Part shown: piece by piece, positions 2,229-64,000 of the stretch
How the letters are laid out: each line of letters starts with the position of its first letter
How positions within the stretch are numbered: position 1 is the stretch's first letter
Virus record (IMG/VR): IMGVR_UViG_3300017761_005636
Coordinates: 14,693 to 78,692 of that record
Strand: one strand, 5' to 3'
From: a virus
Lineage: Duplodnaviria; Caudoviricetes
Length of the DNA: 64,000 bases
Notes under the pieces: generated by a model
Databases searched by the model: none
Told to the model about the DNA's origin: nothing
What the model saw: only the letters and a program-made list of their open reading frames with translations
Made by a program: the position numbers and the translations under genes

Positions 2229-2229
2229 T

Positions 2230-7027: not shown

Positions 7028-7028
7028 G

Positions 7029-10538: not shown

Positions 10539-10558
10539 TTTTATAATTTTTTATGTAT

Positions 10559-10594
10559 AAAAAAATCCTGCTTATATTTTACTATAAACAGGAT
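10559..10594 (-). terminator. Probable intrinsic terminator of the phoH operon
   Basis: Imperfect stem atcctg-c-ttata / tataa-a-caggat with a U-tract on the minus strand (a-run 10559-10564). Confidence 0.5.
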
Positions 10595-10609
10595 AGTATT
10601 TTTAATTGT

Positions 10610-11613: not shown

Positions 11614-11619
11614 TTGTTT

Positions 11620-12141: not shown

Positions 12142-12167
12142 TTATTTCCATATAATAAAACATTTAA

Positions 12168-49741: not shown

Positions 49742-50695
49742 ATGAAAATTTATTATTATTGCCCAAATCTGAATCATCCTTCAGGTGGTATGGGTGTTTT
49801 ATTCAAGCAAGCAAAGATTCTTGCTGATAATGGTTATGATGTTACACTTCTTTATGAAGGTCAAGAGACATTCAATCCAACTTGGATGGAATTTAGTATT
49901 GAACATATTCCAAAGGTTAGAATTAACCACCTAGACAGCTTTAAAATCAACTCAAATGATTTATTGGTAATACCAGAAGGTTTTGGTTATTTGATTGATT
50001 CTACCAAGAATATGAAGTGCAAGAGAACAGTTCTTGCACAGAGTTGGATTTATATTTATACATCAATGCCAAGAGCAAAGTCTTGGAAAGAATCAGGTAT
50101 TGAAAGGGTAATTAGTGTTTCACAAGGTATTACTGAATATATTCAAAAGTATATGCCAAGAATTGAGGTTGACCAATACAAACAATCCATAAGTCCAATA
50201 TTTAAATCAAATTTAGATAAAGAATTCAAAGTTTGTTATTCATCCTCAAGGTCAAATACTCAACAGATGAATACATTAAATCTTATTAATATTCTTAAAT
50301 CATCAGATAAGAGATTAAGAAATGTTCAATTTATTGAATTAAAGGGAATGTCAAAACAACAATTTGCAAATGAACTTGCTAATTGTGCTTTTTGTCTTTA
50401 TACAGATGAAATTGCAGGATTTGGAACACTTCCATTAGAAGCAATGGCTTGCAATACACATGTTGTTGGTTTCTCAAACATTGGTAATAAAGAATATGTA
50501 AGAGACAGTAATGGATTTTGGTGTCAAAATGGTGACTATCATACACTTACTGATAATATTATCACAGAATTAAATAGATTTCTTGATGGTTATGAATATG
50601 ATGGTTTGTGTCTTCACGAAATAAATACTTCTTCACAATATAATGAACCGCAGGAAAAAGAACGTATTTTAGATATATTTGAAACTTTTAAATAA
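49742..50695 (+). CDS. GT-B (GT4-like) glycosyltransferase
   Basis: NHPSGGMGV...LADNG N-terminal motif; GFGTLPLEAMAC donor-binding motif. Confidence 0.8.
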   Translation: MKIYYYCPNLNHPSGGMGVLFKQAKILADNGYDVTLLYEGQETFNPTWMEFSIEHIPKVRINHLDSFKINSNDLLVIPEGFGYLIDSTKNMKCKRTVLAQSWIYIYTSMPRAKSWKESGIERVISVSQGITEYIQKYMPRIEVDQYKQSISPIFKSNLDKEFKVCYSSSRSNTQQMNTLNLINILKSSDKRLRNVQFIELKGMSKQQFANELANCAFCLYTDEIAGFGTLPLEAMACNTHVVGFSNIGNKEYVRDSNGFWCQNGDYHTLTDNIITELNRFLDGYEYDGLCLHEINTSSQYNEPQEKERILDIFETFK

Positions 50696-50699
50696 AACT

Positions 50700-51539
50700 A
50701 TGCTGCTAAATTTAATCATTTTTTCAAAAGACAGAGCAATGCAACTTCATTTATTGCTTGAGTCTATTTTATTAAATTTTAATGTTGAGGATTATAAATT
50801 GAATATTCTCTATAAAGCATCAAATGATGAATACAATAGAGGATATAATATGATTAGAGATTTATATCCACAATTTTTATATAAAAGAGAAGAGAATTTT
50901 AAATCTGATTTAATGTCATTTTTCAATAATTCTGAATATACAGTTTTTTTAACTGATGATGATATTATATATCAGTCTCTTAAATTGAATAATGATGAGT
51001 TGCATAATATTTTTATGTTAACAGAAGCAAATTGTTTTTCATTGCGTTTGGGATTGAATACTGTTAATTGTTATACAATGCAAAGATTGAATAAATTGGA
51101 AAATTTTAATAAACATTCATTTTTTCATGACACAGATTTAATTGAACCAGTTATTTCTTGGAAAGTAAAAGATGGCACAAATGATTATGCATATCCTATG
51201 TCTGTTGATGGTCATATTTTTAAAACTGAATACATCAAGAATCTTTGTGAAGTTTTAGAATATACAAACCCTAATTTATTTGAAGGGTTTTTGTCAAATT
51301 TTGGGAAACCTGAAATGATAATTTCATCATATGAACATAGTAAGTTAGTTAATTCACCAATTAATAGAGTTCAAGATACATTTCAAAATTTATCAGGAAT
51401 GAAATATAAATATTCAGTTGAAGATTTGAATGAAATGTATCTGGATGGTCTTATTTTAAATCTTGAAAAAATGAATTTCAATGAAATCACAGGATGCCAT
51501 CAAGAAATTCAACCTATTTTTAAATTAAATGAAGAATAA
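50700..51539 (+). CDS. GT-A-like glycosyltransferase
   Basis: IIFSKDRAMQL and a DDD (FLTDDDII) metal-binding motif. Confidence 0.65.
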   Translation: MLLNLIIFSKDRAMQLHLLLESILLNFNVEDYKLNILYKASNDEYNRGYNMIRDLYPQFLYKREENFKSDLMSFFNNSEYTVFLTDDDIIYQSLKLNNDELHNIFMLTEANCFSLRLGLNTVNCYTMQRLNKLENFNKHSFFHDTDLIEPVISWKVKDGTNDYAYPMSVDGHIFKTEYIKNLCEVLEYTNPNLFEGFLSNFGKPEMIISSYEHSKLVNSPINRVQDTFQNLSGMKYKYSVEDLNEMYLDGLILNLEKMNFNEITGCHQEIQPIFKLNEE

Positions 51540-52257
51540 TTTTTTAATAGTATGTTTTTTTTATAATGCTGCTGAATACATTGAAAAATGTATTGGCTCA
51601 ATTATATCACAAGATTATCAAAACTATCGTGTTCTTTTTGTTGATGATGCATCAACTGATAATGGATTTGATTTAATTGATGATGATGAAAGTTTCATAA
51701 AAATTAAAAACCAAGAAAATAAAGGTTTATTGTATAATTATGCAACATATCTTCAATTATATGCAAATGAGGATGATATTATAATTGTATTAGATGGGGA
51801 TGATTCTTTATATGGCAATAAAGTACTTTCTTATTTAAATGATTTTTATAATGAACATAATTGTTTAGTTACATATGGACAATCATTATGGACAGATGGT
51901 AGAAAAGGATTTGCAAGACCTTACACAGAATCAGAATTTACAAATCTTAGAAAAACACAATTTTTAGCATCACATCTTAGAACATTTAAATACGAATGTT
52001 TTAAAGAATTAATGAATCAAGACCCAAATTTTGATTGTTTTAAGGATAAAAATGGAGATTTTTATATGATGGCAGGTGATGTTGCAACAATGTATCCAAT
52101 TATGGAAATTGCAGGTTTTGAAAAAGTGAAATATATTGATAAAATATTATATCTTTATAACATACATAATCCATTATCTGACCATATGAAAAATCAACAA
52201 CTTCAATGGTCAATTAATAGTGAAATTAATAATAAGAAAAAATTTAAAACTTTATGA
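51529..52257 (+). CDS. GT2 family glycosyltransferase
   Basis: YNAAEYIEKCIGSIISQDY, FVDDASTD, VLDGDD. Confidence 0.9.
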   Translation: MKNNFLIVCFFYNAAEYIEKCIGSIISQDYQNYRVLFVDDASTDNGFDLIDDDESFIKIKNQENKGLLYNYATYLQLYANEDDIIIVLDGDDSLYGNKVLSYLNDFYNEHNCLVTYGQSLWTDGRKGFARPYTESEFTNLRKTQFLASHLRTFKYECFKELMNQDPNFDCFKDKNGDFYMMAGDVATMYPIMEIAGFEKVKYIDKILYLYNIHNPLSDHMKNQQLQWSINSEINNKKKFKTL

Positions 52258-52865
52258 TACTAGATTTTAATCAACTTTTAAGAAAATACAATATGGACAT
52301 CAAGGGCATTATCCATATTGGTGGTCATTATGGTGAAGAACATTCTCTTTACAAACAAAACAATATAAAAAATATTGTATATTTTGAACCATTAAAATCA
52401 AATTTTGAGGTATTAAAAAATAATGTAAAAGATGATGCATTGCTATACAATATTGCATTAGGTAATGATGATTGTGATATTGAAATGAATGTTGAAACAG
52501 CAAATAATGGACAATCATCTTCAATTTTAGAACCCGATTTACATCTTTTACAATATCCTAGTATTGTTTTTGATAAAAAAGAAACAGTACAAATGAAAAA
52601 ACTTGATAATGTTGGATTAGAAAATAATTACAACTTTATCAATATAGATGTTCAAGGATATGAACTTGAAGTTTTTAAAGGTGCTGAAAACACACTAAAA
52701 AACATTGATTATATTATCTCAGAAATTAATAGGGCTGATGTTTATAAAAATTGTGCAAAAATTGAAGAACTTTGCGACTTTTTAGGAAGATTTGGTTTTA
52801 AATTAGTTGAAGAAAATTGGTTAGGCCAAACTTGGGGTGATGGTTTATTTATTAAAAAATTCTAA
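52254..52865 (+). CDS. FkbM-family methyltransferase
   Basis: IHIGGHYGEE, YFEP, NIDVQGYELEVFKGA. Confidence 0.88.
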   Translation: MILDFNQLLRKYNMDIKGIIHIGGHYGEEHSLYKQNNIKNIVYFEPLKSNFEVLKNNVKDDALLYNIALGNDDCDIEMNVETANNGQSSSILEPDLHLLQYPSIVFDKKETVQMKKLDNVGLENNYNFINIDVQGYELEVFKGAENTLKNIDYIISEINRADVYKNCAKIEELCDFLGRFGFKLVEENWLGQTWGDGLFIKKF

Positions 52866-52870
52866 ATACA

Positions 52871-53563
52871 ATGGCATTATATCATCAACTTGAACAAAAT
52901 GAAATTGATATAGTAAATTATCTACATCAAACCAATACAAATGAAAACTTAACAGTATTTGATGTTGGGGCAAATAGAGGTTTATTTATTGATTTATTTT
53001 TAAACAAATTCAAAAATATAAAAATACATTCATTTGAACCAATAACAAATCTTTTTGATAATTTATCTTTAAAATATAAAGATAATCAAAATGTTATATT
53101 AAATAAACTTGGAATCTCAGATGATGAAAAAACACTTGAATTCTGTGAATTAATAAATCCTGTCACAGATGGTTGTTCATCACTTATAGAAAGACCTGTT
53201 TTTAAAGAAATGGGATGGGAATATAAAAAATATGAAATACCAACAATAAGTATTGATAAATATTGTTTAGATAATAATATTTCATATGTTGATTTTATTA
53301 AGATTGATGTTGAAGGTGCTGAAATGATGGTATTAAAAGGTTGTCAACAATTATTTCAAAATAATGCAATAAATCTTATCCATTTTGAATATGGTAATAC
53401 ATTTCAAGATGCTGGTATTACATTATATGATGTTAAAGATTTTGTTGAAAAATATGGTTATAATATTTATTATTTTGAAGATAATAAATTCAATAAAATT
53501 GATACTTTAAATATCAAACAATACGCAAAAATTAGTATTGTTAATTTTGTTATTAAAAAATAA
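52871..53563 (+). CDS. FkbM-family methyltransferase
   Basis: FDVGANRG, SFEP, IKIDVEGAEMMVLKG. Confidence 0.9.
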   Translation: MALYHQLEQNEIDIVNYLHQTNTNENLTVFDVGANRGLFIDLFLNKFKNIKIHSFEPITNLFDNLSLKYKDNQNVILNKLGISDDEKTLEFCELINPVTDGCSSLIERPVFKEMGWEYKKYEIPTISIDKYCLDNNISYVDFIKIDVEGAEMMVLKGCQQLFQNNAINLIHFEYGNTFQDAGITLYDVKDFVEKYGYNIYYFEDNKFNKIDTLNIKQYAKISIVNFVIKK

Positions 53564-53569
53564 ATAATT

Positions 53570-54310
53570 ATGGAAAAAATAAGTCTTTGCATACCAAATT
53601 ATACTAGAACACATTTTCTTATAGAATCTTTCAATAAGGTTATTAATGATGATAGAATCAGCGAAATTATTATTAATGACGATTGTTCTTCAAATTTTGA
53701 AGAAGCAATTAAACTATTAGAAGATTTAAATTCCAATAAAATAAAAATCTTTAGAAATGAAGTAAATTTAGGTCCAATGTTTAATAAATTGGAAACAATA
53801 AAAAAAGCATCTAATGAATTTTGCATCTTGTTAGATTCAGATAATGTCATCTCTAAAGAATATCTTGATACTATCTATTCTCAAGAATGGTCAAAACATA
53901 AAATAATTTGTCCTGAATTATTAATACATCATGAAGAAAATATATGGAATCAAAAAGATGTATTTATTCCTTATACTGATTTTTTAAATATAAAGATTGA
54001 TTTTCAATATGTAAAAAATTGTATTTTAAATGGTAAAAATATAGAAACATTACTAAATACAGGTAATTTTTTTGTTAATAAAGATATGTATGTAAATTCA
54101 TTTGTAAATAATACATTTGATAGAAGTGTAGATGTTTGTGATGTTTGTTTTTTTTCTTATTTATTTTTATTATTTGATAATCAAAATTATTTAGAAGTTT
54201 GTAAGGGTTTAAATTATGTACATAGAGTACATAATGGAAGTTTTTATCTGAATAACGCACATAATGGGGCATTACAATTAGGAATTTTAAGACAAAATTT
54301 TATCAAATAA
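53570..54310 (+). CDS. GT2-like glycosyltransferase
   Basis: ISLCIPNY, IIINDDCS, N-x-G-x-x-x-N, ILLDSDN. Confidence 0.82.
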   Translation: MEKISLCIPNYTRTHFLIESFNKVINDDRISEIIINDDCSSNFEEAIKLLEDLNSNKIKIFRNEVNLGPMFNKLETIKKASNEFCILLDSDNVISKEYLDTIYSQEWSKHKIICPELLIHHEENIWNQKDVFIPYTDFLNIKIDFQYVKNCILNGKNIETLLNTGNFFVNKDMYVNSFVNNTFDRSVDVCDVCFFSYLFLLFDNQNYLEVCKGLNYVHRVHNGSFYLNNAHNGALQLGILRQNFIK

Positions 54311-54314
54311 AAAT

Positions 54315-55154
54315 ATGATACTTCAGTCACCTGATTTTTTAAGAGTAAATATTAATACAATTTATCCACCTTATAATAGTGTTCTTTTTGAAGAATATTT
54401 TTATAGAGAATTTGTATCTAATAATGAAATTACAAATAGAATTTATATACCTGCATTTTGGACAAGTCTATATGTTAATAGAAATTATGGACATGGTGAT
54501 TTATCTGATATACAGAATTTTATTGATAATTTAGATAGAAATCAAAAATATTTTACAATTGTTCAATATGATGATAATATTTTAAATGATTTTAAAGATT
54601 TAGATATTAAAATATTTACTATGGGTGGTCATGGAAAATATAAAGATAAGTCATATCCAATTCCATTAAATTGTTTACCTCCTAAAGGTCTACAAATTAT
54701 GAATAAAGATATTTTAGGGTCTTTTATTGGTAGTATAAATGGTAGACATATTATTAGAGAAAAAATGGCAAATGTTTTAAAAGACAATAATAAATATATT
54801 ATTTCTGAACATATAAGTTACCCTCAATTTAGAGAAATAATGTCAAGAAGCATTTTTTCATTATGTCCAAGAGGTTACGGTCAAACATCTTTTAGAATTT
54901 GTGAAGCATTACAAGTTCAATCTATTCCTGTTTATATTTATGATGAACCATTAATTCCGTTTTATACTGAATTTGATTTTAATGATATCGGAATCTTGAT
55001 TCATGAAAGTGAGATTGATAAAATTGATGAAATCTTATCTTCAAAAACTTCAGAAGATATTCAAAATTATGTTAATAATGGAATTAAAATTTATAATGAA
55101 TTTTTTGATTATAAAGGATGTTATAAAGCAATAATTAAAATACTAAATAAGTAA
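54315..55154 (+). CDS. Exostosin-family (GT47-like) glycosyltransferase
   Basis: SIFSLCPRGYGQTSFRICEALQVQSIPVYI...LIPF. Confidence 0.82.
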   Translation: MILQSPDFLRVNINTIYPPYNSVLFEEYFYREFVSNNEITNRIYIPAFWTSLYVNRNYGHGDLSDIQNFIDNLDRNQKYFTIVQYDDNILNDFKDLDIKIFTMGGHGKYKDKSYPIPLNCLPPKGLQIMNKDILGSFIGSINGRHIIREKMANVLKDNNKYIISEHISYPQFREIMSRSIFSLCPRGYGQTSFRICEALQVQSIPVYIYDEPLIPFYTEFDFNDIGILIHESEIDKIDEILSSKTSEDIQNYVNNGIKIYNEFFDYKGCYKAIIKILNK

Positions 55155-55158
55155 AAAA

Positions 55159-55758
55159 ATGATAAAAGAAGAAAAAAAAAATATTGAGGATGATTTTATT
55201 AAAAAATATCCTGAAGTGGTGTTAACATCTTGGGGTGATAGTCACAATAAAATTACAAAAATCATCAATGAAAATAATTATAAAATTGGTGTTGAAATTG
55301 GTGTAGCATATGGTGGTCACTCAACAAGCATATTAGAAACAACTAATGTAGACAAATTATATGGCATTGACCCATATATGAATTATGATGCCTATAAAGG
55401 TGATACACAATGTTTTGAAAATACTAAAATCAATGACTTACATGATTTTGTTAAACTTAGAATGTCATTTTATGATAATAGATTTGAACTTGTTAGAAAA
55501 TTGTCACACGAATGTTCTGATATGTTTGAAAATGAATCTTTAGATTTTGTATATATTGATGGCAATCATTATGAAGAATATGTAAAAAGAGACATTGAAA
55601 TTTGGTGGGATAAAGTAAAAAAGGGTGGGATTTTATCAGGACACGATTACAACCATCCTTCATTTCCATACGTTACAACTAGTGTAAATGATTTTTTTTC
55701 TAAGTTAAACAAAGAAGTAAATTACTTAGAATCACACGTTTGGTGTGTTTATAAATAA
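55159..55758 (+). CDS. Class I SAM methyltransferase (Methyltransf_24-like)
   Basis: GVEIGVAYG, LDFVYIDGNHYEE, GGILSGHDY. Confidence 0.85.
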   Translation: MIKEEKKNIEDDFIKKYPEVVLTSWGDSHNKITKIINENNYKIGVEIGVAYGGHSTSILETTNVDKLYGIDPYMNYDAYKGDTQCFENTKINDLHDFVKLRMSFYDNRFELVRKLSHECSDMFENESLDFVYIDGNHYEEYVKRDIEIWWDKVKKGGILSGHDYNHPSFPYVTTSVNDFFSKLNKEVNYLESHVWCVYK

Positions 55759-55762
55759 AAAA

Positions 55763-56518
55763 ATGAATTGTGATATAATAATAAAATCAAATAGTCATTA
55801 TTCACATTTATGGCCTATTATAAATGATACCACATCTCATTTTAATAAAGTATATTTATGTATAGATGATGATTTAGGTTTTAAATTTAATAATAATATT
55901 AATATTATAAAATATGATTTAAATTTATCATATCCATCTAGATTAATATCTATATTAGAAAATATAGATTCTGATTACATTTTATTAAGTCATGATGTTG
56001 ACATATTATTAAATTTTGATATTATTAAATATAATAAATATCTAAACATTATCAAAGATAATAATATAGATAGATTAAGTATGGGTGTATTTGTAGGAAA
56101 TGATATTATTGAAGATGGTATGTTAAAAATATGTAAATTAGAAAAACATATGAGTACTAATTTTTTAACTCCATATGATTATGCACCATCAATTTATAAT
56201 AGAATTAAAATTTTAGATTTTTATAAAAATTTCAGAACAGAAACTTATAAAAATTTGGAACATAATGAATTGGCTCAGTCATATATTAATGATAATTTAA
56301 ATTGTTATGGTATACAAAAAAATGAAAATTTAAAATTAATTTATCATAGAGGATTTGTATATACTTCTGATTTTAATTTTTTACATTTAACTATTTCAGG
56401 TAAATTTATGAATGAGGAAAATTATTTTGATTTAATAAGTGACTTTAATAAAATTAAAGATAAATATAATTTAAATCTACCTATAAAAAATTACAATTTA
56501 TCAAAACAGGAAATATGA
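55763..56518 (+). CDS. Hypothetical, possibly GT-A-like protein
   Basis: YPSRLISIL...YILLSHDVDIL (DxD-like) in the middle of the GT cluster. Confidence 0.45.
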   Translation: MNCDIIIKSNSHYSHLWPIINDTTSHFNKVYLCIDDDLGFKFNNNINIIKYDLNLSYPSRLISILENIDSDYILLSHDVDILLNFDIIKYNKYLNIIKDNNIDRLSMGVFVGNDIIEDGMLKICKLEKHMSTNFLTPYDYAPSIYNRIKILDFYKNFRTETYKNLEHNELAQSYINDNLNCYGIQKNENLKLIYHRGFVYTSDFNFLHLTISGKFMNEENYFDLISDFNKIKDKYNLNLPIKNYNLSKQEI

Positions 56519-56550: not shown

Positions 56551-57729
56551 ATGAAACTTTTTTTAAAAGATAATAATAGAGAAATTAATATTTACAAAAC
56601 AAAAAAAATTAAATTAATAGGTAATAATATATTTTACCCAAATTGCTTAATGTATTCATTAGATAATAATGAAATATATAAACCAATTAATGAAAATATC
56701 ATGTCATTATTAAATTTTGAAGATAACTATTCATTTAATATTGATATTACTTATAATAATATAATAAAATCTCCTGTATTTTTTTTTATTTACAATACAG
56801 ATAACTATTATCATTTTGTATATGATACATTACCTTATTTAATTTCTTTTTTTGAACTTAAAAAAGAGATTAAAAATCTTAAATTGTTAATGAATTATCC
56901 AAATATATCAAAAAATAAACATTATAAATTTGTGTTAGAATTTTTAGAAATATTAGGTATTAGCTATGATGACATAATTATAGGAAATCAAGACACTCTT
57001 TATAGTGAAGTTTATTTTTCTACATCATATACTCATGATTCAAAATCCAATTTACCACCAAGAAAAGAAATTTATGAATTTTATCAATCAATCGTAAATA
57101 AAGTAAAATCTAAAAATAAAATAGATAATTTACCCAAGAAAATATATGTTTCTAGAAGAACTTGGATTCATAATGATTTATCAAATATTGGTACAAATTA
57201 TACAACTAGAAGAAAACTTATAAATGAAGATGAATTAGTTAATAATCTTGAAAAAATAGGTTATAAAGAAATATTTACAGAAAAGTTATCAACTATTGAA
57301 AAAATACTAATGTTTGCACAAGCAGAATCAGTTATAGGTTCTATAGGTGGTGGTCTCTGTAATGTATTATTTTCTAATAAAAATACAAAATTATATGCAA
57401 TTATATCACCAACATTTTTAGATGTTAACTATAGATTTAAATATTCATTTTCAAATGTTAATACAGTATATTTTTATGAAACAAGTCATGTTGAAACTGA
57501 TAAGTTTAAAAAATATATCAGAGTTAAATTTAATAATTTTATTGGTGAAATAGAAGATATAAATAATGATGAAATTTTAATTTCATATGTTGACCAAAAA
57601 GTTGCAGGTTGGAATAGTGAAATGGAATTAAAAACAATTACTGCTAAAAAAGAAGAATGTGAATTATTGGACAATGGTTTAAATTCTGCGTGGCAAGTTA
57701 ATATACTAAAATTATTAGAGATTTTATGA
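56551..57729 (+). CDS. GT61 / DUF563-like glycosyltransferase
   Basis: NYYHFVYDTLP, KIYVSRR, RKLINEDEL, QAESVIGSIGGGLCNVLF. Confidence 0.8.
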   Translation: MKLFLKDNNREINIYKTKKIKLIGNNIFYPNCLMYSLDNNEIYKPINENIMSLLNFEDNYSFNIDITYNNIIKSPVFFFIYNTDNYYHFVYDTLPYLISFFELKKEIKNLKLLMNYPNISKNKHYKFVLEFLEILGISYDDIIIGNQDTLYSEVYFSTSYTHDSKSNLPPRKEIYEFYQSIVNKVKSKNKIDNLPKKIYVSRRTWIHNDLSNIGTNYTTRRKLINEDELVNNLEKIGYKEIFTEKLSTIEKILMFAQAESVIGSIGGGLCNVLFSNKNTKLYAIISPTFLDVNYRFKYSFSNVNTVYFYETSHVETDKFKKYIRVKFNNFIGEIEDINNDEILISYVDQKVAGWNSEMELKTITAKKEECELLDNGLNSAWQVNILKLLEIL

Positions 57730-59126
57730 AAGTAGCATTATTAATATCAGGATATCTAAGAAGTTATAAAAATAATATAAAATATATACAAGATGAAATT
57801 ATTAGTAATTTTAGTGATGTTGATATTTATTTACATATTACAAAAAATGAAAGTAAAGAGGATAAATATTTAAATTTTATTGATGAAGAAAATGATGTAA
57901 AAAATATTGTTTCTATTTTAAAACCTAAATCTTTATTGGTTGAAAATAATGCAGATGCTAACATTTTGAAAAATCAATGGTCAAAACTTTATAAATTAAA
58001 TCAATTAAAAATAACTAATGAAATATTAGAAAATAAAAAATACGATTTAGTTATACGTTATAGATTTGATTTAAGGCTAAAAACATATCATGTATTTAAT
58101 AATATAGAATCTAATAAAATTTATATCCCAAAAAATAGTAAAATAGATAAATCAAAACTTCAAAATCCTGATGATAATTATATATGTGATGCATTAGCAT
58201 TTGGTGATTCATATATAATGGACAAATATTTTGATATATTTAAATATTTAGATAAATATGGTAATGTATCGGAAACTAGTCTTTATAAATATTTAAAGAA
58301 TTTTAATATAAAATATGATTTAATTGATATTGATTATGAGTTTATATTATCATCTTGTAATATATTTGGTATATGTGGTGATTCAGGTTCAGGTAAAACA
58401 CGTTTAGGAAATAGGTTAAAAGAATTTTTTTCTAATTCATTTATGTTAGAATGTGATAGATATCATAAATGGGAGAGAGGTGACGAAAATTGGTCTAAAT
58501 TTACACATTTAAATCCTGATGCAAATTATATTTCTAAAATGAATGAAGATATTTTTAATTTAAAAGTTGGAAATTCAATTTATCAAGTTGATTATAATCA
58601 TAAAAACGGTAGGTTTACGGAAAATAAAATAATTGACCCAAGTGAAAATACAATAATATGTGGTTTACATAGTTTATATCAAGAAAATGAAAATTTATAT
58701 GATATAAAAATTTTTATTGATACTGATGAAATTTTAAAAACAAAATGGAAAATAGAAAGAGATGTAAATGAACGTGGTTATAAATTGGAAAATGTATTAG
58801 CACAAATTGAAAAAAGAAGAGAAGATTATATAAAATATATTTACCCACAAAAATATAAATCAGATGTTATAATTAATTTTTTTCCATTTAATGATGAAAT
58901 CGGTCTTAGACTTTTAATTAAAAAAGATTTTAATATTAATTTTTTATTTGATAAATTAAAAAATAATAATATTGGTTTTATCTATGATAATAATGATATT
59001 AAATTTAATATAATTATATTTAATAAATATTTTTATATTGATTTTTGGGAAAATTCTATAGTACCAAAATTTAATGACTTTTATGATTATATAATTTACA
59101 TCATTTTAAATATGAAAAGACAATGA
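57726..59126 (+). CDS. Fusion: GT-like N-terminal domain + phosphoribulokinase-like kinase
   Basis: N-terminal MKVALLISGYLRSY...YDLVIRYRFD. C-terminal GDSGSGKT, DRYH, NPDAN, YNHKNG, GLHSLY, WKIERDVNERG and YIYPQK. Confidence 0.8.
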   Translation: MKVALLISGYLRSYKNNIKYIQDEIISNFSDVDIYLHITKNESKEDKYLNFIDEENDVKNIVSILKPKSLLVENNADANILKNQWSKLYKLNQLKITNEILENKKYDLVIRYRFDLRLKTYHVFNNIESNKIYIPKNSKIDKSKLQNPDDNYICDALAFGDSYIMDKYFDIFKYLDKYGNVSETSLYKYLKNFNIKYDLIDIDYEFILSSCNIFGICGDSGSGKTRLGNRLKEFFSNSFMLECDRYHKWERGDENWSKFTHLNPDANYISKMNEDIFNLKVGNSIYQVDYNHKNGRFTENKIIDPSENTIICGLHSLYQENENLYDIKIFIDTDEILKTKWKIERDVNERGYKLENVLAQIEKRREDYIKYIYPQKYKSDVIINFFPFNDEIGLRLLIKKDFNINFLFDKLKNNNIGFIYDNNDIKFNIIIFNKYFYIDFWENSIVPKFNDFYDYIIYIILNMKRQ

Positions 59127-59779
59127 AAGATTTAATAAATTTATCACATTCTGTTTCAAAATTTTGCGTTGGCATGGAAGGTAATGTTTCCATGAAAACC
59201 AATTTAGGTTTAACTATAAAAGCAAGTGGTTCTAAATTAAGTAATCTAAATGACAAAGATTTAGTATCTTATGATTTTTTGGGTAAACAGGTTGATAATT
59301 TTGAAAAAAGAGGAAGTATGGAACTTGGTTTTCATATTTTTTTATTACAACAAGAAGATATTAATTTTATAGCACATACACATCCAATAAACACATTAAA
59401 AATACTTTGTACAGAAGATATAGATACATTTGCAAATTATAGATTATTTCCTGACCAAGTAGTTTTCAATGGAAAAAAATCTTGTATTGTACCATATGCA
59501 AAACCTGGAGATGAATTAACAGAAAAGATTAAAACACAAGTCAATATTTTTATAAAAACAAACAATGAATTTCCAAAATTAATTTTATTAAAAAATCATG
59601 GAATTATTGCTTGTGGTAAAACATCAGAAGAATGTATAATAATAAGTGAAATCTGTGAAAAGGCTGCCGAAATATTTATAGGTTCTAAATTAATTGATAA
59701 TATGAATTTTTTATCAAGTTTTCAAGTTAATAACCTTATATTTGATGAAAAGGAAAAATATAGGAAATCTTTAATATGA
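59123..59779 (+). CDS. Class II aldolase/adducin-family protein
   Basis: EGNVS, IKASG, AHTHP and LLKNHGIIACG Zn-binding motifs. Confidence 0.85.
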   Translation: MKDLINLSHSVSKFCVGMEGNVSMKTNLGLTIKASGSKLSNLNDKDLVSYDFLGKQVDNFEKRGSMELGFHIFLLQQEDINFIAHTHPINTLKILCTEDIDTFANYRLFPDQVVFNGKKSCIVPYAKPGDELTEKIKTQVNIFIKTNNEFPKLILLKNHGIIACGKTSEECIIISEICEKAAEIFIGSKLIDNMNFLSSFQVNNLIFDEKEKYRKSLI

Positions 59780-60069
59780 AAATAATTTATATTGATATTG
59801 ATGAAACAATCTGCACAACACCTGAAAGTAGAAAATATGAGGATGCTCAACCAATTTTTTCAAATATCAAAAAGATAAATGAATTATATGACCAAGGAAA
59901 CACTATTGTTTATTGGACCTCAAGAGGAAGTAGGAAACAAATCAATTGGTATGATTTAACATACAAACAATTAGTATCATGGAATGTTAAATTTCATGAA
60001 TTAAGAGTTGATAAACCTTATTATGATTTATTTATTGATGATAAAACTTTAAGAATTGAAGAAATATGA
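59776..60069 (+). CDS. Small HAD phosphatase (capsule-locus EcbF/BcbF-like)
   Basis: IDIDETI (motif I), WTSRG (II), KP and IDDK (III/IV). Confidence 0.8.
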   Translation: MKIIYIDIDETICTTPESRKYEDAQPIFSNIKKINELYDQGNTIVYWTSRGSRKQINWYDLTYKQLVSWNVKFHELRVDKPYYDLFIDDKTLRIEEI

Positions 60070-60518
60070 AAATTATATCACATAGAGGTAATATAAACGG
60101 CTCTATATCTGAAAAAGAAAATAGACCATCATATATTGATTCAGCCATCCAACTTGGTTATGATGTTGAAGTTGATTTAAGAATTATTGATAATGATTTT
60201 TGGTTAGGTCATGATGAACCTCAATATAAAATTCAATTAACATGGATGCGATTAAGAAAAGATAATCTTTGGTTTCATTGTAAAAATATTAATTCAGCAT
60301 TAAATTTAGCTAAATTAGATGAAGATTTTAAATATTTTTGTCATTCACAAGAACCATATGTATGTACAAGTCATAAATATCTTTGGATTCATGATTTAAC
60401 AACTAATATTAACGATAAATGTATAATTCCTCTTTTATCAAAAGAAGATATTAATAATTATACAAATAGCGAACCCTACGCAATTTGCACAGATTTTGTT
60501 AATTATAGTATAAAATGA
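60066..60518 (+). CDS. Small glycerophosphodiester-phosphodiesterase-like protein
   Basis: ISHRGN, DVEVDL, LGHD, ICTD. Confidence 0.7.
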   Translation: MKIISHRGNINGSISEKENRPSYIDSAIQLGYDVEVDLRIIDNDFWLGHDEPQYKIQLTWMRLRKDNLWFHCKNINSALNLAKLDEDFKYFCHSQEPYVCTSHKYLWIHDLTTNINDKCIIPLLSKEDINNYTNSEPYAICTDFVNYSIK

Positions 60519-61426
60519 AAAAAAATATCATACTAATACCGCCATGTTTTACATATGGAGATTGTTTATCAGTAATTGGTATGTTATATTTTTTATTAGA
60601 TTACTATGAAAAAGTGTATTTTTATGTTGGTAACGATACATTAATATTTGAATATTATTTGTGCTATTTTTCCAATGATAAATTATTAAATGAGAGAATT
60701 TTTGTAATAAAAAATCCCGAAATATTATTAAATAATAGCCAATATGGTGAGTATCATATATGTAATACATTAACAGCAGAATGGGATAAAGCAAATTATT
60801 TATTTTATGATAATAAAAATATTGATAGTGAATTTTATTTTAATGATTTAAATCCATTATATAATAAATTAAATATTGATAAAAATCATATTTTTTCACC
60901 AAATTTACATTTACCGAATAAAAATATTGAAACTAATCATTTAATTTATTATAAATTACTTGGTATTAATAATAATGTTAGAATGGATTATTTTAATTAT
61001 GAAAGAAATATAGAAAAAGAAAAAGAAATTAAGTATACTATATTAAAAAGCATAGGAATTAATGAAAAAGAAAAATATAATATCATAAATGACTCAGTTA
61101 ATAATAATCAGAAATTAATTAATAATGATTTACCAATTGTAAATATAAATTTTTTAGCTAAATGTGCAGGAGATTTACTTACATTATTAGAAGATTCTGA
61201 AACAATACATTTTGTAGAAGGTAATAATGTTAATTTTTTCTATCATTCACAATATAAAAATATATTTAAATATGATAAAAAAATTTATTTTCACATTTGG
61301 CTTCGTAATAGAAATTGGACACATCCTAATATGAATTTAGATTATGCATGGAAAATGATGGATGAACCAAAATTAAATAATTGGATTTTTATTTTCAACC
61401 AAAAAGACTTACCTTATATATTATGA
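60515..61426 (+). CDS. Hypothetical protein in the glycan cluster (possibly GT-B-like)
   Basis: YGDCLSVIGM N-terminus and ETIHFVEG near the C-terminus; weak resemblance only. Confidence 0.45.
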   Translation: MKKNIILIPPCFTYGDCLSVIGMLYFLLDYYEKVYFYVGNDTLIFEYYLCYFSNDKLLNERIFVIKNPEILLNNSQYGEYHICNTLTAEWDKANYLFYDNKNIDSEFYFNDLNPLYNKLNIDKNHIFSPNLHLPNKNIETNHLIYYKLLGINNNVRMDYFNYERNIEKEKEIKYTILKSIGINEKEKYNIINDSVNNNQKLINNDLPIVNINFLAKCAGDLLTLLEDSETIHFVEGNNVNFFYHSQYKNIFKYDKKIYFHIWLRNRNWTHPNMNLDYAWKMMDEPKLNNWIFIFNQKDLPYIL

Positions 61427-62970
61427 ATAATATACAATTAATAATTCCAATGTCAGGGATTGGGAAACGATTCATTGACGTAGGATATTCCAACCCAAAA
61501 CCATTAATTGAAGTTGATGGTAAACCCATTATTGAACATGTTATCAATCTTTTTCCAAATGTGACAGATATTACATTCATTTGTAATGACCAACATTTGA
61601 AAGAAACAAATATATGTGAAGTTCTAAATAAAATTGCACCAAATTCTAAAATATTAGAAGTACCTATTGGTTGTAAAGGTCCAGTACATTCAGTTTCACA
61701 AATATTTGATAATATTCAAGATGATAAAGAAATTATTATAAGTTATTGTGATTATAGTACAGTCTGGGATTTTGAAAAATTCTTATTAGAAACTAAAAAT
61801 TGGGATGCAATTATTCCTTGCTATATTGGTTTTCATCCTCATATGCTTGGTTCTGACAATTATGCATTCTGCAAAGTAGATGATAAAAAACTTATAGAAA
61901 TTAAAGAAAAAGAACCTTTTACTGATAATAAAATGTCTGAATATGCATCAAATGGTACATATTATTTCAAATCAGGCGCAATTGTTAAAAAATATTTTCA
62001 AGAATTAATTGATTTAGATGTAAACTTAAAAGGTGAGTATTATGTTAGTCTTGTATATAATCTTCTTGTAAGAGATAACTTAAATGTTGGTATATTTGAG
62101 ATTCAAAAGATGCTTCAATGGGGTACACCATACGATTTGGAGATTTACAAAGGATGGTCTAATTATTTTTCAAAACCATTCCTTAAAACTAAATCCAATC
62201 CTGCAAATACTACTTTAGTTTTACCAATGGCAGGTAAGGGAAGTAGATTTAGCGAAGAAGGATTTACTAATCCAAAACCATTAATTGATGTTGATGGTTT
62301 ACCTATGATATTTAAAGCTGTTAATTGTTTACCAAAATCTGATAAAAATGTTTTTATTTGCCTTGATGAACATATAAAAAATTATGATATTGATACGGTA
62401 TTATGTGATTATTATGATAATACCGAAGTATGGGGTATTAAACAAGTAACCGAAGGTCAAGCATGTACATCTGAAATTGGTATTAATAAATCTAAATTAG
62501 ATTTGAATAATCCTATAATGATTTCAGCTTGCGATAATGGTGTTTACTATGATTCCGAAGAATATAATAGATTAGTCAATGATGAATCAATTGATATAAT
62601 TGTTTGGTCATTTAGGAATAATCAGACAAGTAAAGTTAATCCAAATATGTATGCATGGCTTGATGTGGATAAAGAAGGATTCATTCATCATGTTTCTTGT
62701 AAGAAATTTATTTATGATGACCCATTAAAAACTCATGCAATTATTGGCACTATGTTTTTCAGAAAAGGAAAATATTTTATGGAAGGACTTCAAAAAAATT
62801 ATAATGAGAATATTCGCACAAATGGAGAATTTTATGTTGATGATGTCTTAAATCAAAATATAAAAGATGGTCTTAAAGTAAAAGCATTTGAAGTTGAAAA
62901 TTATATTTGTTGGGGAACACCAAACGATTACAAAACTTATAATTATTGGAAAGAATACTTTAAAAAATAA
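61423..62970 (+). CDS. Tandem double sugar-nucleotidyltransferase (two NTP_transferase/GT-A domains)
   Basis: IIPMSGIGKRF...PKPLIEVDG and again VLPMAGKGSRF...PKPLIDVDG. Both halves end with (K/N)GE(Y/F)YV...WGTP. Confidence 0.88.
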   Translation: MNNIQLIIPMSGIGKRFIDVGYSNPKPLIEVDGKPIIEHVINLFPNVTDITFICNDQHLKETNICEVLNKIAPNSKILEVPIGCKGPVHSVSQIFDNIQDDKEIIISYCDYSTVWDFEKFLLETKNWDAIIPCYIGFHPHMLGSDNYAFCKVDDKKLIEIKEKEPFTDNKMSEYASNGTYYFKSGAIVKKYFQELIDLDVNLKGEYYVSLVYNLLVRDNLNVGIFEIQKMLQWGTPYDLEIYKGWSNYFSKPFLKTKSNPANTTLVLPMAGKGSRFSEEGFTNPKPLIDVDGLPMIFKAVNCLPKSDKNVFICLDEHIKNYDIDTVLCDYYDNTEVWGIKQVTEGQACTSEIGINKSKLDLNNPIMISACDNGVYYDSEEYNRLVNDESIDIIVWSFRNNQTSKVNPNMYAWLDVDKEGFIHHVSCKKFIYDDPLKTHAIIGTMFFRKGKYFMEGLQKNYNENIRTNGEFYVDDVLNQNIKDGLKVKAFEVENYICWGTPNDYKTYNYWKEYFKK

Positions 62971-62975: not shown

Positions 62976-63791
62976 ATGATTACACCATATATAAACGGAA
63001 GATTAGGAAATCAATTATTTCAATATGTTTTTGCTAGAATAGCAGCAAATATAAATAAATGTAATTATTGCATACCATCCAATATTGAAGATGCTACCAA
63101 TCTATATAATAATTGTATAAGAAAATTTAATTTTTATGTTGAATTACCAAATTACCCTTTAAATCCTCATTTTTGGACTGGTGATAAAATATTTAATGTT
63201 GATTTAGGATTTAATGACAATTACCTAAACCAAGTTGTTGGAGAATTAGATATTTCACAAATATCTGATGGTATGTTTTTATATGGTTTCTTTCAATCTG
63301 AAAGTTATATGTTACCATATGAAAATGAAATAAAAAATAATTGGTTAATTTTTAAAGACGAATTAAAAGAAAAATCGCAACCAATTATCAATAAATATAA
63401 ACCTGAAGAATATTGTTATATTCATTTTAGAGGTGGTGATTATAAAACAATTGATAAGTATTTTCTACCAAAATCTTATTATGAAAATGCTATATTAAAA
63501 ATAAAAGAAGAAAAAGCAAATATTAAATTTTTAATTATTACGGATGATTTAGAGGAATCAAAAAAAATGTTTCCTGAATTTGAATCAATAAGTAATTCGG
63601 TGGAAGAAGATTTTTACATGCTTACTCAAGCAAAATATATGATAATACCTAATTCATCTTTTTCTTGGTGGGCTGCTTGGTTAAATCAAAACGAACCTAT
63701 CACAATTGCACCTGACAGATGGTTTAACTATAATAGTGGTGATAATTTTGACCCAATTGGTATAAAATGTTCAAAATTTACATATATTTGA
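62976..63791 (+). CDS. GT11 alpha-1,2-fucosyltransferase-like protein
   Basis: GRLGNQLFQY, IHFRGGDY, IIPNSSFSWWAAWL. Confidence 0.9.
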   Translation: MITPYINGRLGNQLFQYVFARIAANINKCNYCIPSNIEDATNLYNNCIRKFNFYVELPNYPLNPHFWTGDKIFNVDLGFNDNYLNQVVGELDISQISDGMFLYGFFQSESYMLPYENEIKNNWLIFKDELKEKSQPIINKYKPEEYCYIHFRGGDYKTIDKYFLPKSYYENAILKIKEEKANIKFLIITDDLEESKKMFPEFESISNSVEEDFYMLTQAKYMIIPNSSFSWWAAWLNQNEPITIAPDRWFNYNSGDNFDPIGIKCSKFTYI

Positions 63792-63794: not shown

Positions 63795-64000
63795 ATGATT
63801 CAAAAAGTCGCTCACCTTGCCGACATACACTTTCAAAATAATTTGGACAGGTTAGCAGAGCAAAAACATATTTCAAGTCTCACAATCAAATCTCTTCTAA
63901 GTGATAGACCTGATTTAATTGTAATTGCAGGAGACCTATTTCATAATTATGTTAAACCTTTTAATGAAATTAACGTCCTTGCAGGTGATTTCCTAACCTC
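63795..64000 (+). CDS. Mre11/SbcD-like metallophosphoesterase (T4 gp47-like), 3'-truncated by the window edge
   Basis: Translated by hand: MIQKVAHLADIHFQ...PDLIVIAGDLFH. Not in the ORF track because no stop codon is reached. Confidence 0.8.
   Translation, partial: MIQKVAHLADIHFQNNLDRLAEQKHISSLTIKSLLSDRPDLIVIAGDLFHNYVKPFNEINVLAGDFLT

Follow-up and report, generated by a model that had tools for sequence, protein, structure and literature searches.

Sugar activation by kinase, phosphatase and nucleotidyltransferase is familiar from the NDP-heptose pathway, in which GmhA is accompanied by the HldE/HddA kinase, the GmhB HAD phosphatase and the HldE/HddC nucleotidyltransferase. The phage UDP-D-arabinofuranose (Araf) pathway, which begins at Ru5P, employs an arabinose-5-phosphate isomerase, the kinase/pyrophosphorylase AfhE and an AfhF-type phosphatase (PMC13326640). 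In the catabolic non-carboxylating pentose bisphosphate pathway of haloarchaea, RuBP is obtained from nucleosides via R15P isomerase and acted on by a characterized RuBP 5-phosphatase and then by a ribulose-1-phosphate aldolase (PMC9700705). Finally, capsule modules of the EcbF/BcbF type (TIGR01689; PDB 9iqw, 1xpj) combine a HAD phosphatase with an adjacent 4evw-like nucleotidyltransferase (NT). Here we describe a phage cassette that shares features with each of these systems, and for which we found no published description in the literature.

The window, a stretch of 64,000 nucleotides from IMG/VR record IMGVR_UViG_3300017761_005636, is part of the genome of a jumbo myophage. Its phage origin, proposed earlier from the sequence alone, is established by genes for a tail sheath, baseplate, RNR and DnaB that the same record carries. 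Positions 56551-62970 hold seven genes in the order GT61, fusion of a GT-A-fold domain and a kinase, class II aldolase-fold enzyme, HAD, GDPD-fold enzyme, probable glycosyltransferase (GT) and tandem nucleotidyltransferase (Table 1). They are joined by six consecutive ATGA start/stop overlaps at 57726, 59123, 59776, 60066, 60515 and 61423, whereas across the window just 8 of the 55 same-strand gene junctions have such an overlap. The sequence-only reading had reported six ORFs coupled by these 4-nt overlaps; the ORFs are as claimed, and because GT61 is coupled as well, the run comprises seven. The overlap at 61423 also places the start of the tandem NT at the ATG there rather than at TTG 61381, the choice of the ORF lister. 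The domain content given by that reading (PRK fusion, class II aldolase, HAD, GDPD-like protein and double nucleotidyltransferase) was recovered throughout, the GDPD-like assignment by fold only.

Table 1. Features of the cassette and the surrounding glycan island (positions in the window).
Feature	Position	Strand	Basis
Upstream half of the 14-kb glycan island	49742..55758	+	Pfam matches; no TM-like segment in any protein
257-aa protein of unknown family, candidate glycosyltransferase	55745..56518	+	Invariant D84-x-D86
GT61-family glycosyltransferase, opens the ATGA-coupled run	56551..57729	+	Pfam Glyco_transf_61 6e-18
Fusion protein, N-terminal domain (aa 1-210), DUF7796-like, GT-A fold	57726..58355	+	AF2 and Foldseek
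Fusion protein, C-terminal domain (aa 211-466), type II phosphoribulokinase-like kinase	58356..59126	+	Pfam, NCBIfam, PDB, tree, residue table
Class II aldolase/epimerase-fold Zn enzyme, 218 aa	59123..59779	+	Pfam Aldolase_II 2e-24
Capless HAD phosphatase, EcbF/BcbF-like, 97 aa	59776..60069	+	PDB 9iqw 1e-10
Trimmed GDPD/PI-PLC-fold enzyme, 150 aa	60066..60518	+	Fold only (AF2, Foldseek)
303-aa accessory protein, probable viral glycosyltransferase	60515..61426	+	Atlas neighbours
Tandem nucleotidyltransferase, 515 aa, two complete NT domains	61423..62970	+	Pfam, NCBIfam on both halves
GT11-like (fucosyltransferase-family) glycosyltransferase, closes the island	62976..63791	+	Pfam Glyco_transf_11 2.5e-20

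Model scores, PDB matches, a tree and a residue table group the kinase domain with plant, cyanobacterial and archaeal-type PRKs and not with Udk, as its motifs had suggested. Its Pfam PRK match is 4e-34. The NCBIfam model for cyanobacterial PRK, PRK07429, reaches 183 bits, and the uridine kinase models reach 76-80 bits. The PRK07429 score is below the curated cut-off of 236 bits, as is true of every NCBIfam match of the cassette proteins relative to its own cut-off, and of the 326 positions in the PRK profile the domain covers just the initial ~190. In PDB, cyanobacterial PRKs match at 1e-33 and Udk at 1e-10. All seven PRK motifs quoted previously were found (GDSGSGK 218-224, DRYH 244-247, NPDAN 263-267, YNHKNG 290-295, GLHSLY 313-318, WKIERDVNERG 341-351 and YIYPQK 371-376). 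Cassette kinases form a single clade (SH-aLRT 97) within the type II PRKs, the viral ones nested among bacterial GT-C-fused kinases and Udk a far outgroup. Public pipelines label the protein 'uridine kinase' (JGI names, RefSeq name).

For catalytic and Ru5P-binding residues of PRK we followed the naming of 10.1101/422709 and PMC9978339. In a residue table of 43 viral, 12 GT-C-fused and 18 standalone PRKs, positions D244, H247, R251, Y290, H292, K342, R345, D346, R350, R364 and Q375 are invariant with two exceptions, Arg for K342 in one GT-C fusion and Leu for Q375 in one viral row. All 43 viral and 12 bacterial cassette kinases keep the Asp/His dyad and the equivalents of Arg64, Tyr103, Arg159, Asp160 and Arg164, and Udk differs from these kinases at H247, R251, H292, R364 and Q375. 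In true PRKs, Arg67 contacts and helps to hold the 5-phosphate. Its equivalent (E254) is the only catalytic or Ru5P-binding residue lost in the cassette kinases, which carry a distinct KWERG..W loop at this place; the distal end of the substrate may therefore be unlike that of Ru5P. Judged by sequence, the domain is a relative of type II phosphoribulokinases and not a uridine kinase. It shares a P-loop and ~40% identity over the catalytic core with the cyanobacterial/plant (6hzk, 6gve, 6h7g) and archaeal (5b3f) enzymes, but it has no RuBisCO partner, is fused to a GT-A domain and has ~75 unrelated residues in place of the C-terminal dimerization half (profile ~190-326).

The domain in front of the kinase, described earlier as GT-like, has a GT-A fold in its AF2 model (pLDDT 91), for which Foldseek returned GT6 and GT31 GT-A enzymes as best matches (probability 1.0, TMq 0.5-0.57). 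Its nearest Atlas clusters are DUF7796 of Uroviricota, and G9, R12, Y106, R113, D115, P135 and D155 are invariant.

The aldolase-fold enzyme is closest in PDB to FucA-type aldolases (~1e-7). The residues of its metal site, base and phosphate site do not vary among 27 family members (N21, S35, G36, S65, E67, H85, H87, H159), in which the equivalent of FucA Tyr113 is not conserved. The mini-HAD matches a 'capsule biosynthesis protein' (9iqw) and, weakly and under cut-off, TIGR01689 (34.8 bits); across 23 homologues, conservation is 95% or higher at D7, D9, T48, K80, D84 and D89. It occurs in 32 viral loci and a HAD-IA protein in 12, never both, with neither inside the flanks of 11 of the 55 viral loci; this mutual exclusion fits a single phosphatase step. 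The best match of the HAD-IA proteins of bacterial cassettes and of one viral locus (L028) is the model of the haloarchaeal RuBP 5-phosphatase, NF053830 (137-177 bits); the window's own mini-HAD has no similarity to that phosphatase. Sequence searches of Pfam and PDB gave no match for the GDPD-fold enzyme, whose AF2 model (pLDDT 94.7) has GDPDs as best Foldseek matches (probability 1.0, TMq 0.52-0.60). It aligns with its 196-aa bacterial partner (hhalign 99.5%) and has invariant H6, R7, N9, E35, D37 and H49. The tandem NT matches 4evw at 3e-10, and each half has its own motif set, more than 90% conserved and including GxGxRF and the CD motif, so that both look catalytic from their sequences; in several bacteria the two halves are adjacent split genes.

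The enzyme set was found again in 55 viral PRK loci, of which 51 have AldII, 49 a GDPD-like gene, 45 NT and 49 GT61. Bacteria carry it at 10 or more loci, and an E. coli plasmid (NZ_CP145712.1) has it too. Every core enzyme was present in 10 of 10 bacterial cassette loci. By contrast, AldII, GDPD-like and NT genes were near none of 20 standalone PRK loci; one of these has a HAD-IA and three adjoin RuBisCO. Fusions recur as well: DUF7796+PRK in 48 loci, HADIA+AldII in 8, PRK+AldII, HADIA+NT and GDPD+NT+NT in 2 each, and NT+miniHAD in 1. The PRK+AldII, HAD+AldII, HAD+NT and GDPD+NT+NT combinations place all five enzymes in one pathway. The five core enzymes are alike in the bacterial Gtr-type form, where a membrane GT-C domain replaces the GT-A domain and GtrA and a GtrB-like GT2 are added; the phage has no GtrB-like GT2 beside its cassette and no GtrA, GT-C domain or membrane protein in the island, and has the soluble GT-A (DUF7796) domain and GT61 instead. 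The 97-aa HAD and each NT half of the cassette resemble proteins of the EcbF/BcbF-type modules, which have no kinase, aldolase-fold or GDPD-fold enzyme. The pairing of BcbF-type HADs with nucleotidyltransferases, placed by the sequence-only reading in capsule loci linked to fructose-decorated polysaccharides, was partly borne out by one gammaproteobacterial locus, where a mini-HAD, an NT, a DUF7796-like protein and a GT2 stand in a row.

The cassette lies in a 14-kb island whose 17 genes encode soluble GTs, methyltransferases and proteins of sugar activation; TM segments were found in none of the 17 proteins. Its upstream half encodes, by Pfam, a GT1-like protein, an unknown, a GT2, two FkbM methyltransferases, a second GT2, a GT47/RXYLT1-like protein and a Methyltransf_24. 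The 257-aa protein, present in 32 of 55 viral loci, matched nothing in Pfam or PDB and showed no relation to DUF7796 by hhalign; Y57, D84, D86, R110, Y168 and H214 are invariant. The 303-aa protein (15 of 55) had no Pfam match, and its neighbours in Atlas, by feature as well as by structure, are viral clusters named 'glycosyltransferase family', a GT9-like identity being a lead only. Given these 17 genes and the absence of RuBisCO from two near-complete relatives (95-96% complete), glycan synthesis rather than the Calvin cycle is the supported setting. The sequence-only reading thus stands as to PRK class, co-conservation across phages and bacteria, and non-Calvin use; its pathway we can restate only conditionally.

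We lean towards a route from Ru5P through RuBP and a pentulose-1-phosphate to an NDP-pentose or NDP-pentulose used by soluble GTs. The likely order is kinase, phosphatase, aldolase-fold enzyme, NT. Family membership, conserved active sites, co-conservation and fusions are shown by the sequences; the substrates, the order of the third and fourth steps, the product and the acceptor are what we infer. The PRK-like domain would phosphorylate Ru5P, or a ketose phosphate much like it, at C1. From the resulting 1,5-bisphosphate the HAD would remove the distal phosphate, so that kinase and phosphatase between them would shift the phosphate from C5 to C1, as happens in the synthesis of NDP-heptose and of phage UDP-Araf. 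The Zn enzyme would then form the C2-C3 enediolate of the ketose-1-phosphate and fix stereochemistry or skeleton, our favoured guess being epimerization to a xylulose-type sugar, with xylulofuranose a candidate product. The tandem NT together with the GDPD-fold enzyme would yield the NDP-sugar, and the fused GT-A domain, GT61 and other GTs and methyltransferases of the island would assemble a cytoplasmic glycan, most likely on virion proteins. In the NDP-heptose and Araf pathways, C1 phosphorylation, removal of the distal phosphate by a HAD and nucleotidyl activation follow the same logic, but the cassette kinase is a P-loop enzyme of PRK type where those pathways have a GHMP/ribokinase/APH-type one, an isomerase is absent, and a second NT domain is present along with the aldolase-fold and GDPD-fold enzymes. 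Its kinase would act on the non-anomeric C1 of a ketose; the resulting ketose-1-phosphate is therefore not an ordinary sugar-1-phosphate NT substrate, and the scheme needs a further step. With the haloarchaeal pathway the cassette would share a HAD on RuBP followed by a class II aldolase fold on ribulose-1-phosphate, but here RuBP would derive from PRK and serve glycan synthesis.

An aldose-1-phosphate would be a normal NT substrate, and pentulose-1-phosphate might instead be isomerized to one and activated as NDP-D-arabinofuranose or NDP-ribofuranose, perhaps for transfer to phage DNA as in RB69-type arabinosylation. GT61 and GT47/RXYLT1-like families, both represented in the island, contain pentosyl transferases, long ThyA-like proteins are encoded by G001 and G002, and the phage UDP-Araf route likewise runs from Ru5P via kinase, HAD phosphatase and NT (PMC13326640). 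We nevertheless consider this unlikely, as the cassette has neither a SIS-type arabinose-5-phosphate isomerase nor an MtnA/eIF2B-type aldose-1-phosphate/ketose-1-phosphate isomerase. To our knowledge, the required isomerization is not catalyzed by any enzyme of class II aldolase or GDPD fold. At least six GTs plus O-methyltransferases suggest a complex glycan and not a modified base, and the bacterial version acts at the cell surface via GtrA, GtrB and GT-C.

Improbable to a similar degree is a shifted kinase substrate (F6P, S7P, a free pentulose or a glycan-attached ketose) leading to another sugar, for example fructofuranose. The missing Arg67 equivalent and remodelled 5-phosphate loop of all cassette kinases, a plant PRK crystal with G6P as substrate analogue (PMC9978339), the kinase-free gammaproteobacterial module and the consistent fusion of the kinase with a GT domain, of GT-A type in the phages and GT-C type in the bacteria, all point this way. 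The remaining Ru5P-contacting residues are nonetheless invariant, the partner HAD-IA most resembles RuBP 5-phosphatase, and a fructose variant would need no kinase because cells make fructose-1,6-bisphosphate anyway. In the bacterial proteins the active site of GT-C points out of the cell and the kinase lies in the cytoplasm; fusion of the two therefore need not mean action on the transferred sugar.

Less probable still is cleavage of ribulose-1-phosphate by the aldolase-fold enzyme to DHAP and glycolaldehyde, with a C2 or C3 fragment, for instance a unit resembling glycerol phosphate, activated and attached via a phosphodiester with the GDPD-fold enzyme assisting. Kinase, RuBP 5-phosphatase-like HAD and FucA-like aldolase would then mirror the last haloarchaeal steps (PMC9700705), GDPD-fold enzymes bind glycerophosphodiesters, IspD-, TagD- and TarI-type NTs use primary phosphates, and weak IspD matches occur here. 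DHAP, however, is plentiful in any host, the cassette has no conserved reductase, the ribulose-1-phosphate aldolase model scores only 38.8 bits, and the bacterial cassettes carry GtrA and a GtrB-like polyprenyl-phosphate glycosyltransferase, as is typical where the donor is a monosaccharide. A nucleotide-salvage uridine kinase or a carbon-fixation auxiliary gene with unrelated neighbours, as the pipeline names or the Calvin-cycle role of PRK might suggest, is very improbable and, as far as sequences can tell, refuted in view of the PRK-over-Udk scores and residues, the lack of RuBisCO in the relatives, and the co-conservation and fusions with AldII, HAD, NT and GDPD-like domains.

In conclusion, the phage carries a widely conserved cassette for what is probably a sugar activation by kinase, phosphatase and nucleotidyltransferase. 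On balance, we regard the phage locus as a soluble, phage-borne form of a widespread pathway that would divert Ru5P from the pentose phosphate pathway.

The kinase half of the fusion protein groups with the phosphoribulokinases (PRKs). All seven motifs that had been quoted for it from the sequence were found in the fusion protein, and its assignment to PRK rather than to uridine kinase (Udk) held up in both a profile comparison and a phylogeny. Against NCBIfam models, it scored 183 bits with cyanobacterial PRK07429 versus 76 and 80 bits with uridine kinase models, both of which are below the respective cut-offs of 220 and 180 bits. The match to NF005655 (183 bits against a cut-off of 236) covered only profile positions 9-190 of 326, and about 75 unrelated residues take the place of the C-terminal dimer-sheet half of PRK. 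Comparison with the PDB gave E values of 1e-33 for cyanobacterial PRKs versus 1e-10 for Udk; a literature search on the entry 9qko, a "Hyella" PRK, found nothing. A kinase-domain tree was calculated from 74 sequences, namely the window, 42 other viral kinases, 12 bacterial kinases fused to a GT-C-like membrane domain (GT-C::PRK), 18 standalone PRKs, three of which are encoded within 1-2 kb of RuBisCO, and a true Udk as outgroup (254 bits). Among type II PRKs, a single clade (SH-aLRT 97) unites every viral kinase with 10 of the 12 bacterial GT-C-fused kinases, and inside it the viral kinases are themselves a clade (SH-aLRT 99) nested among the bacterial GT-C-fused ones. The branch to the Udk outgroup is 3.8 substitutions long.

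Amino acids of the active site agree with this placement. The P-loop GDSGSGK together with D244 and H292, which correspond to the catalytic dyad Asp57/His105 in CrPRK numbering (PMC9978339), is invariant among the 43 viral, 12 GT-C-fused and 18 standalone kinases. The same holds for R251, Y290, R345, D346 and R350, the equivalents of the Ru5P-binding residues Arg64, Tyr103, Arg159, Asp160 and Arg164 (10.1101/422709). The exception is the position of Arg67, the second arginine of the 5-phosphate site: all 18 standalone PRKs have Arg there, the window has Glu, and the cassette clade varies, with just one of its 43 viral sequences having Arg and a KWERG..W loop occupying the region. Even among PRKs at large, conservation of Arg67 is not strict (10.1101/422709). 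Judged by its residues, the cassette kinase is thus PRK-like at the phosphoryl-transfer end, yet it falls outside strict PRK membership. As far as sequence can show, a uridine kinase is ruled out by the model scores, by the tree and by the five PRK-invariant sites at which Udk differs from PRKs. A role as an auxiliary gene of carbon fixation in the Calvin cycle is likewise ruled out, given that no RuBisCO large subunit was found in G000 or in the phage relatives G001 and G002 (95-96% complete), whereas the bona fide PRK loci L070, L078 and L081 adjoin RuBisCO.

The two GT-C::PRK fusions that fall outside the cassette clade, L069 and L088, come from a Myxococcota and a Vulcanimicrobiota MAG. 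Their kinases cluster with RuBisCO-linked PRKs of Dormibacterota (SH-aLRT 99), they retain the Arg67 equivalent, and they have no AldII, nucleotidyltransferase (NT) or GDPD neighbors. This looks like a separate fusion event.

The domain preceding the kinase had been described as glycosyltransferase (GT)-like, which is supported by its predicted structure. These N-terminal 210 amino acids resemble phage DUF7796 proteins and are modeled (pLDDT 91) as a GT-A fold with GT6 and GT31 structures as nearest neighbors. Among INPHARED phages there was no full-length homologue of the fusion; Synechococcus phages B3 and B23 have the N-terminal domain alone (25% identity). AldII is a protein of the class II aldolase/adducin superfamily (FucA, RhaD, AraD, MtnB), with a Pfam score of 86.9 bits against a cut-off of 22.2. 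Invariant in 27 members are H85, H87, H159, E67, N21, S35, G36 and S65, the counterparts of the residues that in L-fuculose-1-phosphate aldolase (FucA) bind zinc (His triad), act as general base (Glu) and form the phosphate pocket. Since these metal, base and phosphate sites are invariant, enediolate chemistry on a ketose phosphate would be expected, although cleavage, epimerization and dehydration cannot be told apart from the sequence. FucA proper was rejected: the best FucA models gave about 50 bits, below the equivalog thresholds of 250-400, and the column of its proton donor Tyr113 is variable (K, N, Y or D).

The mini-HAD (97 amino acids) carries D7, D9, T48, K80, D84 and D89 of motifs I-IV (DxD, S/T, K and DD), with conservation of at least 95% for each across 23 homologues. 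Among solved structures, the closest to it is 9iqw, a "capsule biosynthesis protein" (1e-10), and the score of the mini-HAD with TIGR01689 (EcbF/BcbF), a model with a single match in 401 gammaproteobacterial genomes, is 34.8 bits and thus below the cut-off of 162; a search for literature on 9IQW and BcbF found nothing relevant. A gammaproteobacterial locus, L103, encodes a mini-HAD of 120 amino acids, a single-domain NT that is 28% identical to either half of the phage NT, a 317-amino acid protein with a weakly DUF7796-like N terminus, and a GT2, and lacks both kinase and aldolase. A capsule module of this type may have been the source of the phage mini-HAD.

The protein that resembles glycerophosphodiester phosphodiesterases (GDPD-like; 150 amino acids, compared with about 230-250 for a full-size GDPD barrel) is predicted with a pLDDT of 94.7 to form a trimmed GDPD barrel, for which Foldseek returned GDPDs as best matches (probability 1.0, TMq 0.52-0.60, TMt about 0.4). 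The protein had no Pfam match at E<=1, and neither it nor a profile of its bacterial 196-amino acid homologues had a PDB sequence match. Residues H6, R7, E35, D37 and H49, constituting an H-R...E-x-D...H set, are invariant in 30 sequences, and RefSeq names a homologue on an E. coli plasmid a PI-PLC/GDPD family protein. The NT consists of two complete domains and exceeds the cut-offs of Pfam NTP_transferase and NTP_transf_3. Because each half separately shows more than 90% conservation of P-M-(S/A)-G-x-G-x-R-F, with the G-x-G-x-R signature of RmlA/GlmU/GalU-type pyrophosphorylases, and of a CD motif (39 and 41 sequences), the halves are probably both catalytic, or else an obligate pair.

A search for the gene neighborhood showed that the enzyme set recurs across viral and bacterial loci. 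In metagenomes, full-length homologues of the fusion number more than 1000. Among 55 viral kinase loci, some of them near-identical, HMM scans identified the GT-A domain in 50, AldII in 51, the GDPD-like protein in 49, the NT in 45 and GT61 in 49. Bacterial genomes gave no match to the single fusion protein as query, and in an alignment-based scan only the kinase domain matched, with no GT-A::PRK fusion seen. Instead, in ten bacterial loci from Bacillota, Bacteroidota, Melainabacteria and Pseudomonadota, the kinase follows a polytopic membrane domain of about 400 amino acids that appears GT-C-like by eye, without a model match. These loci additionally encode an HAD of another type (HAD-IA), a longer AldII, two NT domains, either fused or split, GtrA, a GtrB-like GT2 and a 196-amino acid protein that hhalign identifies as a homologue of the phage GDPD-like enzyme (99.5%). 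By comparison, none of 20 standalone PRK loci has AldII, the GDPD-like protein or NT nearby, and one has HAD-IA.

Further fusions were DUF7796 with PRK (48), PRK with AldII (2), HAD-IA with AldII (8), HAD-IA with NT (2), NT with mini-HAD (1) and GDPD with two NT domains (2), so that fusions link every pair along the chain of cassette domains. Mini-HAD is present in 32 loci and HAD-IA in 12, never together, and 11 loci have neither within their flanks; such mutual exclusion is expected of alternative enzymes for one step. Kinase, HAD and NT are co-located, co-conserved and fused in pairs, and we infer that they act in sequence on one sugar.

A complete bacterial cassette (L091) resides on an IncR plasmid of 33 kb in an E. 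coli isolate from human stool, with an identical copy in a bullfrog isolate; its kinase fusion is labeled "uridine kinase" in RefSeq. Of 5426 complete E. coli genomes searched in near and distant modes, two have the cassette, both times on plasmids of about 33 kb. In a compact viral variant, L056 and L057, PRK is fused directly to AldII (479 amino acids), and a beta-phosphoglucomutase-type HAD fused to a single NT domain (453 amino acids) is followed by a GDPD-like gene. Upstream of the bacterial cassette of a Paenibacillus, L064, there are genes for an acetolactate-synthase-like ThDP enzyme and an NAD-dependent epimerase/dehydratase, which may mean that the glycan contains a second sugar as well, possibly a branched-chain one.

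In the window, the cassette is part of a larger glycan island (see table). The ATGA coupling of its open reading frames, proposed in the sequence-only reading, was borne out by six consecutive overlaps that include the GT61 gene. Such overlaps occur at 8 of 55 same-strand junctions of the window, and six of these are the cassette junctions. None of the 17 island proteins contains TM-like segments. The DxD protein preceding GT61 is unrelated to DUF7796 according to hhalign and has no PDB relative. Directly past the island, a gene for a calcineurin-like phosphoesterase with a start of the Mre11/SbcD type runs off the contig end.

Coordinates of the glycan island and of loci compared with it
Feature	Sequence	Coordinates	Content
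Glycan island, 17 co-directional genes	window	49742-63791	Genes 1-8: GT1-like, unknown, GT2, FkbM, FkbM methyltransferases, GT2, GT47/RXYLT1-like, Methyltransf_24; genes 9-17: DxD protein, GT61, kinase fusion, AldII, mini-HAD, GDPD-like, probable GT, tandem nucleotidyltransferase, GT11
ATGA overlaps	window	57726, 59123, 59776, 60066, 60515, 61423	GT61/fusion/AldII/HAD/GDPD-like/303-aa/NT genes; NT gene starts with ATG at 61423
DxD protein	window	55745	
Calcineurin-like phosphoesterase	window	63795-63998	
L091	NZ_CP145712.1	6022-14984	Complete bacterial cassette
L056	IMG/VR contig 3300008107_008124	9965-12762	Compact viral variant
L064	Paenibacillus	4650-7402	Genes upstream of bacterial cassette
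L069	Myxococcota MAG	6805-8967	GT-C::PRK fusion
L088	Vulcanimicrobiota MAG	826-3177	GT-C::PRK fusion
L103	G059:C3:1255500-1275400	ORFs 9930-13164	Mini-HAD and NT module
L092	G002:C1	97090-98121	ThyA-like protein
L093	G001:C1	115018-116157	ThyA-like protein

The IMG/VR virus record that ends with the 64 kb of the window is 78.7 kb long, has a G+C content of about 25% and is about 21% complete (CheckV). The window contains genes for a tail sheath, a baseplate wedge protein, ribonucleotide reductase, a DnaB-type helicase and a UvsX-like recombinase, which assign it to a myophage. Two relatives carrying the same cassette measure 318 kb and 385 kb at 95-96% completeness. Both possess a tail sheath, and neither matched the NCLDV capsid model, a weak negative given that the model was silent in control genomes, too. 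Their size, their tail sheath and the lack of a capsid match identify a jumbo-phage lineage. Eleven cassette contigs are labeled GVMAG in IMG/VR (L007, L014, L027-L029, L032, L044, L046-L048 and L050), and the query match of L028, on a 164-kb GVMAG contig, is identical to that of L033, on a 349-kb IMG/VR contig. A giant-virus origin is nevertheless not supported: both related records tested have a tail sheath and gave no match to the NCLDV capsid model. Considering that the two related records tested are tailed jumbo phages, some GVMAG bins may contain jumbo-phage contigs.

The pathway proposed in the sequence-only reading was right in outline, and the cassette is real. The bacterial HAD-IA proteins and the viral HAD-IA of L028 best match a model of haloarchaeal ribulose-1,5-bisphosphate (RuBP) 5-phosphatase at 137-177 bits, below its cut-off, with the next-best family at 79-133 bits; the viral HAD of L056 is of a different, beta-phosphoglucomutase-like type. 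In haloarchaea, this phosphatase and the subsequent ribulose-1-phosphate aldolase have been characterized (PMC9700705). The resemblance of HAD-IA to RuBP 5-phosphatase, in combination with the conserved PRK active site, supports from sequence a conversion of Ru5P via RuBP to pentulose-1-phosphate by kinase and phosphatase. A phosphate shift by a kinase plus a phosphatase is known from NDP-heptose synthesis, which is alike in this respect. Equally alike is the phage route to UDP-arabinofuranose, which proceeds through Ru5P, Ara5P, Ara-1,5-P2, Ara1P and UDP-Araf (PMC13326640). For all steps downstream of pentulose-1-phosphate, we infer that AldII would act on the ketose-1-phosphate, that the GDPD-fold enzyme would work with both NT domains to yield an activated sugar, and that the soluble GTs would use it.

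A difficulty of this route is that the C1 phosphate of a ketose is non-anomeric and hence not a plain NT substrate for making a glycosyl donor. That there are two NT domains, and that these are found fused to the GDPD-fold enzyme, suggests double activation with cyclization as a possible answer, and some enzymes of the GDPD/PI-PLC fold make cyclic phosphates. In a possible phosphate walk, PRK would phosphorylate C1, HAD would free O5 so that a furanose ring can close, and AldII would epimerize ribulose to xylulose. The first NT domain would then activate the 1-phosphate, the GDPD-fold enzyme would form a 1,2-cyclic phosphate with release of NMP and open it to the anomeric 2-phosphate, and the second NT domain would make the true glycosyl donor. 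We consider it unlikely that all six steps are correct and that the cassette provides, by this walk, ketopentofuranose donors such as NDP-D-xylulofuranose.

GtrA, a GtrB-like polyprenyl-phosphate GT and GT-C, the components of the three-part Gtr system, are present in bacterial cassettes, but the phage island lacks all three. With no membrane component in the phage version, its glycan must be built in the cytoplasm. Virion proteins are the most likely acceptor; DNA is less likely in view of six or more GTs and several methyltransferases. Relevant to DNA modification, the relatives G002 and G001 encode unusually long ThyA-like proteins (L092 and L093, open frames of 360 and 388 amino acids; Pfam Thymidylat_synt 4e-98 and 5e-89).

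Xylulofuranose is a constituent of Yersinia and Campylobacter glycans. It is also present in the E. coli O antigens O95 and O97, for whose gene clusters a review reports no precursor genes (PMC7685785), and the cassette is a candidate for the precursor route. Its occurrence in two complete E. coli genomes is neutral with regard to this link. Our literature search found no paper describing the cassette.

In conclusion, the cassette is probably a kinase/phosphatase/nucleotidyltransferase system of sugar activation assembled from unexpected enzyme families. If this is true, PRK gains a second, non-photosynthetic role: it would open a nucleotide-sugar pathway that jumbo phages share with plasmids and many bacterial phyla. 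Cassette kinase genes are now labeled "uridine kinase", and PRK matches in viral metagenomes can be mistaken for auxiliary genes of carbon fixation. That a jumbo phage has a fully soluble glycan factory of 14 kb suggests virus-made glycans, which are probably attached to the virion and could affect host range and recognition.
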